Source of the DNA: Escherichia coli
GTDB lineage: Bacteria; Pseudomonadota; Gammaproteobacteria; Enterobacterales; Enterobacteriaceae
DNA length: 64,000 nucleotides
NCBI RefSeq assembly: GCF_003018255.1
Contig: NZ_CP027440.1
Strand: one strand, 5' to 3'
Part shown: positions 20,831-24,198 of the stretch, one piece after another
Numbering within the stretch: the stretch's first letter is position 1
How the letters are laid out: each line of letters starts with the position of its first letter
Position numbers and translations under genes: made by a program
The notes under the pieces: generated by a model
What the model saw: only the letters and a program-made list of their open reading frames with translations
Databases searched by the model: none
What the model was told of the DNA's origin: nothing

Positions 20831-22432
20831 TCAGGATACCACTGGCGCAATTTGTAACTGCGCCGACTCATGTCGTGCTACTTCATGCTCTTCAAGGGTA
20901 AATACCGCCACGCGCGACGAAAGATGGTCGGCCTGATTCGCCAGTTGTTCTGTTGCCACCGCCGCTTCTTCTACCAGGGAGGCGTTCTGCTGTGTCACCT
21001 GATCCATCTGGCTGACAGCCTGTGCAACCTGCTCAATCCCCCGCCGTTGTTCTTCCGAGGCCGAAGCAATTTCTCCCATAATGTCGTTCACGCGGGTCAC
21101 CGAACTGACAATATCAGTCATGGTCGCGGCGGCGTTATTCACCAGTTTCGAACCCTGCTGGACACGATTGACTGACTCTTCGATCAGCCCTTTGATCTCT
21201 TTTGCTGCCTGGGCGCTACGGCTGGCAAGATTGCGCACTTCACCTGCCACTACCGCAAAACCACGCCCCTGCTCTCCGGCGCGAGCCGCTTCCACTGCCG
21301 CATTCAGGGCCAGAATATTGGTCTGGAAAGCAATGCCGTCGATAACGCTGATAATGTCGCCAATTTTTTGCGAGCTGGTAGCGATCTCCTGCATGGTGTG
21401 AGTCATGGTACTGACCTGAACACCGCCCGCCTGCGCCGTTGTCGCGGCATTTTTTGCCAGTTCCGACGCCTGTCGTGCGTTATCGGCGTTTTGCCCTACC
21501 GTGGCGGTTAATTGCTCCATACTGGCGGCCGTTTGTGCCAGCGATGCCGCCTGCTGTTCGGTGCGACTTGAGAGATCGTTATTGCCTGCGACAATCTCCG
21601 CGATACCAATGTGCATCTCCTGGCTTCCCTTACGCACATCACTTACCGTCCCACGCAAAGCCTGCTGCATGGTCTTCAGGCTGGCAAAAATGGCGGTGAT
21701 CTCATTGCGACCATACACCGCAATCGGACGTGCCAGATTACCCGCAGCAATGCTGTCAAAATGGCTACCGATAATGGCCAGTGGTTGAACAATCATCTTG
21801 CGCGTCCACCACAGCGCACTGCTGATGTAGATCGCCGCAACAATAATCATGCTGATAAACACCAGCGCCGAAATGTGATAGTTACGCTGGCTTTGCGCAC
21901 TGGCACTTTCCAGCACATGGTTGATCTCCAGCTGCCAGGCCTCAAAGTTAACGTCAAACGCATTCTGTGATTCCTGCACCGGCGCAGTGAGGAAATCCGA
22001 AAGTTGATTACTTTCAAGCCAGGTCGCCTGATGTTCGAGATCGTTGTGCCAGCGGGCAAAACTTTTCTCCGTCTCTTTTTGCAACGCCCTGACGTGCTCG
22101 TTGCCCGCAGTCATCGCCATAAAACTTTTAAACAGCGTGGTGGATTGCGTCAGACTGGCGCGCGCCGTCGTCATCAACGTTTTAATGTCATCCGCCGGAT
22201 AGCTAAGCGCCGTCAGAGTGCCCGCTTTGTTCAGCGCGGTACTGGCCTGTAACATTACCGCCCGAGTTTGCGCTAATGCCGCACGTTGCTGATTGCTCTG
22301 CTCGACCTGATTCAGTCGTTGCAAATCGTCGCGAAATGCCCAAAAAGACATGCCGTTACTGCCAATCTGCAAGATCCCGCAGAGAATCAAAATTAAAAAC
22401 AGCGTGGTCGAAATTCGAATACGATTAAACAT
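20831..22432 (-). CDS. tap: Methyl-accepting chemotaxis protein IV (dipeptide/pyrimidine receptor)
   Basis: 533 aa from MFNRIRISTTLFL; two TM segments, HAMP, conserved MCP signalling domain ([26 protein letters not shown]). Confidence 0.95.
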   Translation of the reverse strand: MFNRIRISTTLFLILILCGILQIGSNGMSFWAFRDDLQRLNQVEQSNQQRAALAQTRAVMLQASTALNKAGTLTALSYPADDIKTLMTTARASLTQSTTLFKSFMAMTAGNEHVRALQKETEKSFARWHNDLEHQATWLESNQLSDFLTAPVQESQNAFDVNFEAWQLEINHVLESASAQSQRNYHISALVFISMIIVAAIYISSALWWTRKMIVQPLAIIGSHFDSIAAGNLARPIAVYGRNEITAIFASLKTMQQALRGTVSDVRKGSQEMHIGIAEIVAGNNDLSSRTEQQAASLAQTAASMEQLTATVGQNADNARQASELAKNAATTAQAGGVQVSTMTHTMQEIATSSQKIGDIISVIDGIAFQTNILALNAAVEAARAGEQGRGFAVVAGEVRNLASRSAQAAKEIKGLIEESVNRVQQGSKLVNNAAATMTDIVSSVTRVNDIMGEIASASEEQRRGIEQVAQAVSQMDQVTQQNASLVEEAAVATEQLANQADHLSSRVAVFTLEEHEVARHESAQLQIAPVVS

Positions 22433-22477
22433 CAACGCTCCCCATCAGGCGGCAATGACCGCGTTAGTAAATACTCG

Positions 22478-24139
22478 TCAAAATGTTTCCCAGTTTGGAT
22501 CTTGTTCAGCAATTCGCAGTCGTGGCTGTGCCGGTGGTTGCTCACTGGCAGGACGGGATGGTGTTTGCGGTTTATTGGTGAGTGGGCTGGCTGCCAGACG
22601 GAACGCGGAAACCGCTTGCGTTAAACGACTCGCCTGTTCTTCCAGCGCAGCTGCGGCGGCAGCTGATTCCTGCACCAGCGATGCGTTCTGTTGCGTGACG
22701 CGATCCATTTCCGAAACCGCCAATGCGACTTGATCGATGCCACGGCTCTGTTCATCCGATGCCGATGCAATCTCGCCCATAATGTCAGTCACGCGAGTGA
22801 CAGCATTGACGATATTGTTCATTGTTTCCCCGGCGCTTTCGACCAGCACCGAACCGGTATCAACGCGCGAGACGGAGTCTTCAATGAGGGCTTTGATCTC
22901 TTTTGCCGCCTGGGCGCTGCGACTGGCAAGATTACGCACTTCGCCCGCCACCACGGCAAAACCACGGCCCTGTTCACCCGCTCGTGCGGCTTCAACAGCG
23001 GCATTCAGCGCGAGGATATTAGTCTGGAAGGCAATACCATCGATAACGCTGATAATGTCGGCAATTTTCTTCGAACTATCGGCGATCTCATGCATCGTTT
23101 TCACTACGCCATCCACCACTTTGCCGCCGTGCTGGGCGGTGTCGGAGGCACTTTGCGCCAGTTGCGAGGCCTGGCGGGCGTTATCGGCGTTTTGCTTCAC
23201 TGTCGCGGTGAGCTGCTCCATGCTGGCGGCAGTTTCTTCCAGCGCGGATGCCTGCTGTTCCGTACGGGAGGAAAGATCGGTGTTGCCCGCCGCAATTTCA
23301 CGGGTACCGGCATAGATGGCATCTGAACCTTCACGCACATGAGTGACGGTGTCAGTCAAAGAGCGTTGCATATGTGAAACGCTCTGCGCCAGGTCGCCCA
23401 TTTCACTGCGCCCGTCAATGGTCAGGGTATTCGCCAGGTTACCACCGGCGATTTCGCGAATGTGAGCAATAATTTTTGCCAGCGGTGTAAGCAACATACG
23501 GCGAATGCCGTACCACGCCACCAGCAGAATCAATACCACCACCAGCGCGATAACCGCCAGTTGCCACTGGGCAAATCGGTAATCATCTGCGTTGTCAGTG
23601 ACGATATCGCGATACAGTTTTTCACTGCTGAGGGCGTACTGAGCAAACGCTTCGCCCATTGCATTTTGCATTCCCTGGGTTGGCTGAGCGAAATAAGCTC
23701 CAGTATTGCCATAATCAAGATAATCAATCAGTTCAGTTAACGCTGTGTGATAGTTTTTATATTTTTCATCAATATTACGACTGGTAGCGACCATTTCAGG
23801 TAACGGTGCCATGCTTTTGAATTTTTTATAATGAGTCGCTGCCTGGGCCAATGTTTTCCTGGCGCTATCGAGCAATTCAACTTTGGCATTACTTTGCTGA
23901 TTGGATGAATCCATCATCATCCGCACCGCTGAACGACTCAGGTTAATGCGCGTTTGCAGCATTAAATCCCATGTTGACGTCAGCTCGCCCTGCTGTTCCC
24001 GTAATTGATTGGAAACCACAAAGCTCTTCTGGCTATGGTGAAGGGAAGAAAAAAACAGACTGCCGGAAATAAGCTGTAACAGTGCGAATACCCCCAGCAC
24101 CATTACCAACAGCGTGACTACGCGGATACGGTTAATCAT
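22478..24139 (-). CDS. tar: Methyl-accepting chemotaxis protein II (aspartate/maltose receptor)
   Basis: ORF 22478-24160; start placed at [22 protein letters not shown] (553 aa); C-terminal NWETF pentapeptide that tethers CheR/CheB. Confidence 0.96.
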
Positions 24140-24170: not shown

Positions 24171-24198
24171 TTATCGGCAAGGAAGGGGGAAACTTTAT
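24171..24198 (-). promoter_or_regulatory. Sigma-28 (FliA) class 3 promoter of the tar-tap-cheRBYZ operon
   Basis: Minus-strand reading gives TAAAGTTT-N11-GCCGATAA, a perfect match to the sigma-28 consensus, about 40 bp upstream of the tar start. Confidence 0.85.

Follow-up and report, generated by a model that had tools for sequence, protein, structure and literature searches.

The tandem chemoreceptor genes tar and tap of Escherichia coli: a shared signalling block, natural Tar-Tap hybrids and the loss of tap

That tar and tap are paralogues able to recombine into hybrids has been part of textbook chemotaxis genetics since the 1980s, and the paralogy of the genes for methyl-accepting chemotaxis proteins (MCPs) belongs to the classical knowledge of the field. 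In this line, tar-tap deletion hybrids were reportedly obtained in the laboratory, and both Tar-Tap and Tap-Tar chimeras are said to have been engineered. In the laboratory hybrids the homologous 3' regions reportedly recombined to join Tar sensing with Tap signalling, as is also seen here; the hybrids described below, on the other hand, are natural alleles of wild isolates. A further receptor gene with the same conserved signalling block is tsr (b4355 in E. coli K-12), which encodes the serine receptor and lies unlinked, about 2.6 Mb away. Finally, tap (together with trg) has reportedly been lost from uropathogenic or phylogroup B2 E. coli, and papers citing this work likewise state the loss of Tap in B2/UPEC strains.

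The locus examined here belongs to a window of 64,000 nucleotides, the whole stretch of DNA under analysis, from contig NZ_CP027440.1 of E. coli. Its closest described counterpart is the tar-tap-cheRBYZ ('meche') operon of K-12, with tar (b1886) and tap (b1885), and both share the order cheA-cheW-tar-tap-cheR-cheB-cheY-cheZ. The genes are equal in length in the two strains (553 and 533 aa), the block that tar and tap have in common is 98-99% identical to K-12 at the nucleotide level, and the window carries an allelic variant, whose longest exact run between tar and tap is 21 nt instead of the 24 nt of K-12. Compared with the nearest genome, JNE23-011 (99.9% identical), in which tap carries the nonsense mutation Q96*, the tap gene of the window is intact.

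The tar-tap locus and its shared block

The window has the standard E. coli arrangement cheW-tar-tap-cheR, with the following features.

20831..22432, minus strand: tap coding sequence, 533 aa, intact (open reading frame and translation, Pfam, annotation in E. coli genomes)
22433..22477, minus strand: tar-tap spacer, the 45 nt between the tar stop codon and the start codon of tap (ATG at 22432)
22478..24139, minus strand: tar coding sequence, 553 aa (open reading frame and translation, Pfam, annotation in E. coli genomes)
24171..24197, minus strand: match to the sigma-28 (FliA) promoter consensus, TAAAGTTT-N11-GCCGATAA, upstream of tar (sequence inspection)

Across 4.2 kb the DNA is 98.5-99.9% identical to thousands of E. 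coli chromosomes in which these genes are annotated as tar and tap and their flanking genes as cheR and cheW, and the two proteins are 98-100% identical to their K-12 counterparts. Both the position between cheW and cheR and this near-identity to annotated genes identify them as the E. coli orthologues. Tar is methyl-accepting chemotaxis protein II, the aspartate/maltose receptor, and Tap is methyl-accepting chemotaxis protein IV, the dipeptide/pyrimidine receptor. Both fit the Tar/Tsr type of transmembrane MCP, with an N-terminal four-helix TarH domain for ligand binding (2.3e-41 in Tar, 3e-42 in Tap), a HAMP domain (1.6e-11 and 1.9e-9) and a C-terminal MCPsignal domain (5.1e-63 and 1.8e-56), all scoring above the Pfam cut-offs. 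The pentapeptide NWETF, which tethers CheR and CheB, is the mark that separates the high- from the low-abundance receptor classes; the translations end in ...DPNWETF for Tar, which has it, and in ...QIAPVVS for Tap, which does not.

The two genes are neighbours on the minus strand, 45 nt apart, and homologous over most of their length, with an amino-acid identity that drops from 75.7% within the C-terminal block to 25% across the N-terminal part. They are tandem paralogues, as the earlier note had correctly named them. In the spacer, GGGGAG provides the ribosome-binding site of tap and no hairpin resembles a terminator, so that tar and tap are co-transcribed.

A dot-plot of 20831-24139 against itself revealed just one direct diagonal, offset by 1,701 nt (567 codons) and free of gaps, which spans about 20950 to 21608 on the tap side and from which the following elements were delimited.

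20930..21607, minus strand: shared block as present in tap, codons 276-501 of Tap, with the methylation helices and hairpin tip of the signalling domain (from the gapless diagonal)
22631..23308, minus strand: shared block as present in tar, codons 278-503 of Tar (from the same diagonal)
21339..21359, unstranded: longest exact tar/tap run, 21 nt, matching 23040-23060 (K-12 has 24 nt)
21477..21494, unstranded: second-longest exact run, 18 nt (partner 23178-23195)
21190-21205: third exact run, 16 nt

Along its 678 nt the block is 71.7% identical between the genes (192 mismatches), with local peaks of 80-84% that are found at 21181-21380 and a best 100-nt window of 84%. Outside it, an ungapped comparison at this offset gives only background identity, 0.2-0.4. 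Chance or composition can be ruled out as the source of this similarity: the diagonal is the only one, in frame and 72% identical, where the background is 20-40%. The long near-identical stretches that had been announced from a first reading are therefore a real repeat described too generously, given its overall identity and its longest exact run. The two pairs of strings quoted then do exist, at 21213-21250/22914-22951 and 21325-21367/23026-23068, exactly 1,701 nt apart and 86.8% (5 mismatches in 38) and 90.7% (4 in 43) identical. The dot-plot proposed as a check also contains the extended identity above about 75% that was expected, in 60-nt windows at 21022-21125, 21157-21403 and 21430-21578. 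The ranges given for the repeat, about 20900-21450 against 22700-23250, were some 100 nt out of register.

The repeat comparison also gave a short direct repeat (D3, 26 nt, 81%) and two weak inverted repeats (I1 and I2), all of them apparently due to chance; I2 simply reads a portion of the conserved block on the opposite strand.

Natural Tar-Tap hybrids

A split query was used to count the genomes in which both flanks lie 1,701 bp closer together, and 5,386 complete E. coli genomes gave a match. The exact 1,701-bp deletion was present in three of them, strains ET474, PEC389 and ETEC4088, which represent two independent events: ET474 and PEC389 are identical over 4,283 nt, and ETEC4088 differs from them at 63 positions. 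Each of the three genomes has a single intact gene of 1,608 nt between cheW and cheR, encoding a Tar-Tap hybrid of 535 aa that ends in ...QIAPVVS and not in NWETF. At the informative sites the change from tap-type to tar-type is clean; it falls inside 21339-21359, the 21-nt run, in ET474 and PEC389, and inside 21477-21494, the 18-nt run, in ETEC4088. If crossovers were uniform along the block, the chance of both falling in the two longest runs would be about 0.004, a value that refers to only two events. The proposal that these direct repeats could serve as recombination substrates giving Tar-Tap hybrids is thus borne out in natural genomes.

In a wider collection, the same two hybrid proteins occur as exact sequences on 28 and 71 contigs, about 100 in total, always in the context cheA-cheW-hybrid-cheR-cheB. 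With repeats of just 72% identity and about 100 independent contigs that have these alleles, the deletions are unlikely to be collapses of the assembly. The isolates are wild, from pig, frog and other sources, and the databases label the hybrids simply as 'tar'.

The reciprocal product, a duplication with a tap-tar hybrid gene between tar and tap, was not found among 5,404 genomes with a contiguous synthetic junction of 642 nt as probe, which would miss crossovers lying outside it; the best identity to that junction was 89.3%, the wild-type level. Unequal crossing-over is represented by its deletion product in three genomes, and by no duplication above 89.3% for this 642-nt probe.

For efficient RecA-dependent recombination in E. 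coli, the minimal efficient processing segment of uninterrupted identity is reportedly about 23-27 bp, and mismatch repair would strongly suppress recombination at an overall identity of 72%. The longest exact runs, 21 nt in the window and 24 nt in K-12, are at or below that length, and the natural crossovers nonetheless occurred at runs of 21 and 18 nt. The deletions may have arisen by RecA-dependent homeologous exchange or by RecA-independent slipped misalignment or annealing at short repeats.

We found no report of natural Tar-Tap hybrids in the searchable literature, whose reach does not extend to the key hybrid papers. Our tentative proposal, to which we give somewhat less than an even chance, is that fused Tar-Tap receptors are in natural circulation in two or more independent lineages of E. 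coli, each derived from a 1,701-bp deletion with its crossover in one of the two longest (18-24 nt) runs. As for the signalling phenotype that we infer for them, they would be aspartate/maltose sensors with a Tap-type signalling half devoid of NWETF, in cells left with no dipeptide receptor.

The question of concerted evolution, the loss of tap and the antisense reading frames

The earlier note also invoked gene conversion between the copies, and recurrent conversion could in principle keep them alike, the high-identity stretches being its recent tracts. The two genes are indeed adjacent, in the same orientation and with their repeats 1.7 kb apart, identity climbs locally to 80-84% (21181-21380), and their longest exact run slightly exceeds a null of synonymous permutations (P = 0.049 for the 21 nt of the window, P = 0.015 for the 24 nt of K-12), an indication that synonymous sites are not fully randomised. 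The unlinked pair tar-tsr, however, behaves likewise, so this excess does not point to a conversion specific to the tandem. Against such a process, synonymous divergence between tar and tap is near saturation (pS 0.66, dS about 1.6, with dN 0.18, nucleotide identity 0.717 and amino-acid identity 0.757) and equal to that observed with tsr (tar-tsr pS 0.65, nucleotide identity 0.770; tap-tsr pS 0.66, nucleotide identity 0.705). Moreover, tar is closer to tsr (77%) than to tap and shares with it a longer exact run, 28 nt versus 21 nt. Where the amino acids agree, tar and tap use the same codon in a fraction of 0.494, tar and tsr in 0.497 and tap and tsr in 0.491, values for which codon usage alone predicts about 0.39, and in the 100%-conserved hairpin tip the fraction (0.37-0.47) is no higher than for tar-tsr. 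Because synonymous divergence is close to saturation and tar is nearer to an unlinked gene than to its neighbour, the locus bears no sign of concerted evolution, and since the unlinked tsr has the same conserved block, the tar/tap similarity needs no tandem-specific mechanism. This comparison of synonymous sites, which covered trg besides tsr, is sufficient to settle whether conversion took place. Within the block, the orthologues of the window and K-12 differ by only 1-2%, which indicates that nothing happened between the paralogues on the timescale of E. coli, and among the six to seven tar/tap alleles examined no clustered SNP tracts matching the paralogue were found, although rare short conversion tracts may exist elsewhere in the population. 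Recurrent conversion is thus a very improbable source of the similarity, which is no sign of recent duplication or of ongoing homogenisation. A cluster of three SNPs that separates the tar signalling domain of the window from that of its 99.9% identical nearest genome was considered as a conversion from tap and rejected; of the three, a single SNP agrees with the base in tap, and that agreement is in the other genome.

An equally improbable reading would make the shared block a hot and biologically important recombination substrate behind the widespread loss of tap in E. coli. Tar-Tap fusions exist, and about 20% of the complete genomes (1,059 of 5,426) lack most of tap, a proportion that agrees with the published loss in B2/UPEC strains. 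The lesion that they carry, however, is a deletion of 1,374 bp wholly inside tap, which leaves tar in place together with the first ~45 tap codons as a frameshifted remnant, and whose junction is a microhomology instead of the tar/tap repeat.

20928..20939, unstranded: left copy of the 12-nt microhomology TCGrCCTGATTC at the junction of the 1,374-bp tap deletion (right copy 22302-22313)

All 1,059 genomes have this one junction, which fits one event passed on by inheritance in the B2/ExPEC lineage known from the literature, and the deleted alleles also carry a 1-nt frameshift; the deletion is absent from the window. Elsewhere, tap is damaged by point nonsense mutations, an 81-bp deletion or an IS5 insertion. 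The 1,701-bp tar/tap crossover, with its three genomes and two events, and the lack of a detected reciprocal duplication complete the picture: widespread tap loss is unrelated to the tar/tap repeat. A deletion of tap through the repeats, as had been suggested, therefore holds for the rare fusions and not for the frequent loss. The repeats had also been credited with the long antisense frames of the locus, then called spurious. Another reading would make these frames real overlapping genes conserved in both paralogues.

22691..23326, plus strand: longest antisense frame, 211 aa, opposite the tar signalling domain, judged spurious
22737-23315, 20870-21175 and 21081-21401: further antisense frames

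The length of the first of them, the presence of shorter ones in the same frames in tap and one open stretch of 219 codons from stop to stop in frame 0 of tar, in the upper 4% of synonymous-codon shuffles (mean 140, sd 40; P = 0.04, uncorrected for six tests), would speak for such genes. Of the six frames, however, five lie well inside the shuffle null and this one loses its significance on correction, in tap the homologous frame does not stay open (132 codons, under a null mean of 176), and equally long antisense frames occur in the non-repeated cheR, cheB and cheA. In these frames an antisense stop requires one of the rare sense codons TTA, CTA or TCA. Real antisense genes are hence scarcely credible, even less so than the two readings above; the frames are artefacts of composition, and the repeat does not explain them.

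Origin and meaning of the similarity

We consider it highly probable that this is the standard E. coli cheW-tar-tap-cheR locus, with old tandem paralogues whose similarity in the signalling domain is held by purifying selection and which only rarely undergo in-register 1,701-bp deletions at short exact runs. The two genes encode four-helix-bundle chemoreceptors, and selection on the protein would keep their cytoplasmic signalling domains alike, namely the methylation helices together with the CheA- and CheW-binding hairpin tip, so that the 72% DNA similarity over 678 nt would be a by-product of protein conservation and shared codon preference. Perfect runs of 16-24 nt may then, on rare occasions, support an in-register crossover or slippage with the loss of exactly 1,701 bp. 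The outcome is an in-frame fusion that joins the sensing, transmembrane and HAMP regions and the first methylation helix of Tar to the hairpin tip, second methylation helix and tail of Tap, and that is devoid of the NWETF tether for CheR and CheB.

Altogether, the DNA similarity of tar and tap is what protein conservation alone yields and, with tar closer to the unlinked tsr, there is no concerted evolution to explain. The natural fusions labelled 'tar' represent a minor caveat for annotation, and they illustrate how, between diverged repeats, crossovers come to lie where perfect identity runs longest. If these hybrids are indeed unreported and their adaptation kinetics differ, they would amount to a natural experiment, on a small scale, in the swapping of receptor domains and in recombination that depends on short homologies.

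The tar-tap locus and its direct repeat

In the window the two chemoreceptor genes, tap (dipeptide/pyrimidine receptor) and tar (aspartate/maltose receptor), are found in the order flhE-flhA-flhB-cheZ-cheY-cheB-cheR-tap-tar-cheW-cheA-motB-motA-flhC-flhD, with every gene on the minus strand. Strain JNE23-011 is 99.9% identical to the window here across 4.2 kb; K-12 and the majority of other E. coli stand at about 98.5%. Both Tar and Tap carry TarH ligand-binding, HAMP and MCPsignal domains.

20831-22432, minus strand: tap, 533 aa, C-terminus ...QIAPVVS
22478-24139, minus strand: tar, 553 aa, C-terminus the NWETF pentapeptide (CheR/CheB tether)
24258-24232, minus strand: strong terminator-like hairpin with a T-run, 3' of cheW
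24197-24171, minus strand: perfect sigma-28 (FliA) promoter match, TAAAGTTT-N11-GCCGATAA, upstream of tar and just past the cheW hairpin

The promoter match is the expected start of a tar-tap-cheRBYZ transcript. The 45-nt tar-tap spacer contains a ribosome-binding site and a search for a terminator within it found none, so that both genes are co-transcribed.

The four strings quoted in the earlier note as near-identical between tap and tar are all present, each pair spaced by exactly 1,701 nt and showing 87% and 91% identity; the two coordinate ranges offered with them were misaligned by about 100 nt. When 20831-24139 was plotted against itself, a single direct diagonal appeared at offset 1,701 (567 codons, ungapped) over about 20950-21608. 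The shared signalling-domain block (20930-21607 versus 22631-23308) is 71.7% identical, with 192 mismatches in 678 nt, the top 100-nt windows reach 80-84% (21181-21380), and beyond it the 1,701-nt offset gives 20-40% identity. The longest exact runs are 21, 18 and 16 nt, the first of which extends to 24 nt in K-12. On these diagonal, identity and run figures the repeat is real and far above chance, but to speak of long near-identical stretches overstates it.

The same repeat had been proposed to explain long open frames opposite the signalling domains:

22691-23326 (211 aa), 22737-23315, 20870-21175 and 21081-21401, plus strand: antisense ORFs

When the codons of tar and tap were shuffled synonymously, with protein and codon usage held constant, the longest antisense open stretch averaged 120-180 codons; five of the six observed values were ordinary against this null, and the sixth (tar, 219 codons) had P = 0.04, uncorrected. 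Moreover, similar ORFs occur opposite the non-repeated cheB, cheR and cheA. The repeat accounts for their homologous positions in the two genes but not for their existence, and the ORFs themselves follow from composition and codon bias.

An old duplication without homogenisation

Gene conversion between the tandem copies, also advanced in the earlier note, was weighed against a codon-by-codon alignment of window tar and tap with K-12 tsr (the unlinked serine receptor gene) and trg.

Identity of the shared block between receptor genes
tar-tap: amino acids 75.7%, nucleotides 71.7%, pS 0.66 (dS about 1.6)
tar-tsr (unlinked): amino acids 85.8%, nucleotides 77.0%, pS 0.65
tap-tsr: amino acids 74.3%, nucleotides 70.5%, pS 0.66

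The synonymous divergence of the tandem pair equals that of either gene from tsr, with a tar-tap dN of 0.18, and where the amino acids are identical the codons agree at 49.4% of tar-tap, 49.7% of tar-tsr and 49.1% of tap-tsr positions, against about 39% expected from codon usage alone. Even at the hairpin tip, with its 100% protein identity, the tar-tap same-codon fraction is only 0.37-0.47; orthologous alleles of the window and K-12 diverge by only 1-2%. No paralogue-matching tracts were found among 23 polymorphic block sites in 6-7 tar and tap alleles. In favour of some exchange, the longest tar/tap run lies marginally above a synonymous-permutation null (21 nt, P = 0.049; 24 nt, P = 0.015), so synonymous sites are not fully randomised, but the unlinked tsr pair shows an equal or greater excess, and its longest exact run, 28 nt for tar-tsr, exceeds that of tar-tap. 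Altogether, the sequence comparison argues against gene conversion and points to an old duplication whose signalling half has been kept by purifying selection; lying in tandem has not made the copies more alike.

Recombination-substrate arguments fit tar/tsr (77%, 28-nt run) at least as well as tar/tap; an exchange between tar and tsr would be a large chromosomal rearrangement. The nearest genome to the window, JNE23-011 (NZ_AP045067.1), has five differences in 4.2 kb (99.9%), three of which (22796, 22985 and 23015) cluster in a 220-nt part of the tar signalling domain. Conversion from tap was rejected for this cluster; since the differences do not match the tap paralogue, it probably reflects a small patch of allelic recombination or chance alone.

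Natural Tar-Tap hybrids

Recombination at the repeat, the other proposed consequence, does occur in nature. A crossover detector was built by coupling 300 nt of cheR/tap-tail flank with 300 nt from the tar HAMP/TM2 region; its halves merge at one place only in a genome that lacks the 1,701 bp in between. The deletion was found in three of 5,386 complete E. coli genomes.

1706-3313 in each of the loci L004, L005 and L006 (NZ_CP122629.1, NZ_CP100954.1, NZ_CM168012.1): hybrid genes of strains ETEC4088 (pig, Belgium), ET474 (frog, China) and PEC389 (pig, Korea)

Each locus keeps one intact 1,608-nt gene between cheW and cheR, labelled 'tar', and the 535-aa products (WP_098723133.1 and WP_096259879.1), lacking the NWETF tail, are annotated plainly as 'tar / methyl-accepting chemotaxis protein II'. 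Over 318 sites distinguishing tap from tar, the hybrids switch cleanly from tap-type to tar-type, within 21339-21359 (the 21-nt run) in ET474 and PEC389 and within 21477-21494 (the 18-nt run) in ETEC4088. The former two loci are identical across 4,283 nt and thus represent one event; ETEC4088, with 63 differences from them, represents a second. Under uniform placement in the block, the chance of both crossovers falling in the two longest runs is about 0.004. In a wider collection one protein is found on 28 contigs and the other on 71, always in the context cheA-cheW-hybrid-cheR-cheB: these are real circulating alleles and not assembly artefacts. No reciprocal Tap-Tar duplication product was detected, the best match to a synthetic junction being 89.3%, the wild-type value.

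The deletions are exactly in register and in frame, with exchange points inside the longest identity runs. RecA/RecBCD recombination has a minimal efficient processing segment of about 23-27 bp, and the tar/tap exact runs would lie at or below it. The surrounding 72% identity would also trigger mismatch-repair rejection, so crossovers must be very rare, a rarity that fits two events in thousands of genomes. Either homeologous RecA-dependent exchange or RecA-independent slipped misalignment/annealing may have produced them.

In Tar numbering the crossovers fall at about 360-367 and about 315-321. Each hybrid is Tar from the periplasmic domain through the transmembrane helices and HAMP to the first methylation helix; its hairpin tip, its second methylation helix and its tail, which lacks NWETF, are those of Tap. 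By analogy with low-abundance receptors, and with the tar/tap hybrids reportedly studied by Slocum in 1987 and Weerasuriya in 1998, a fusion of this kind should be a sensor of aspartate and maltose and should adapt poorly unless Tsr assists.

Loss and decay of tap

Loss of tap through the tar/tap repeat had likewise been anticipated, but the common deletion has its own junction within tap, unrelated to tar/tap homology. In a survey of 5,426 complete E. coli genomes, 4,319 carried the full cheR-tap-tar-cheW stretch and 1,059 a 1,374-bp in-frame deletion wholly within tap with one common junction. Its ends are two copies of TCGrCCTGATTC (20928-20939 and 22302-22313), a 12-nt microhomology; RecA-independent slippage or annealing must, as we infer, account for this deletion. 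An A-run close by has also lost 1 nt. The deletion leaves tar untouched beside a short tap 5' remnant, for which the annotation of NZ_CP020545.1 (locus L001, 2007-2158) gives a pseudogene named 'Tar ligand binding domain-containing protein'. The Tap loss already described for phylogroup B2 / uropathogenic (UPEC) strains (Lane 2006, Borziak 2013, as related in passages of PMC3559539 and PMC12623472) is presumably this deletion.

Decay of tap in particular has recurred, along more than one independent path.

In NZ_AP045067.1 (loci L002 and L010) a G-to-A change at window position 22147 creates a stop at Tap Gln96 (Q96*), making tap (L002, 1932-3533) a pseudogene; the tap of the window is intact. 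The tap of NZ_AP027523.1 (L003, 932-2452) has lost 81 bp in frame (about window 21473-21553) and also carries an internal stop. In NZ_CP195143.1 an IS5 is inserted in the tar/tap locus, adjoined by 'methyl-accepting chemotaxis protein' and 'Tar ligand binding domain' fragments; the broken gene is more likely tar, because tap is annotated intact beside these two receptor fragments.

Which genes tar and tap are, their tandem paralogy, conserved 3' halves and hybrid-forming capacity, and tap loss in some E. coli lineages were already known. The modest additions are a quantitative demonstration of no gene conversion, a different junction for the common tap deletion, and two natural Tar-Tap fusion alleles with crossovers at the longest identity runs.
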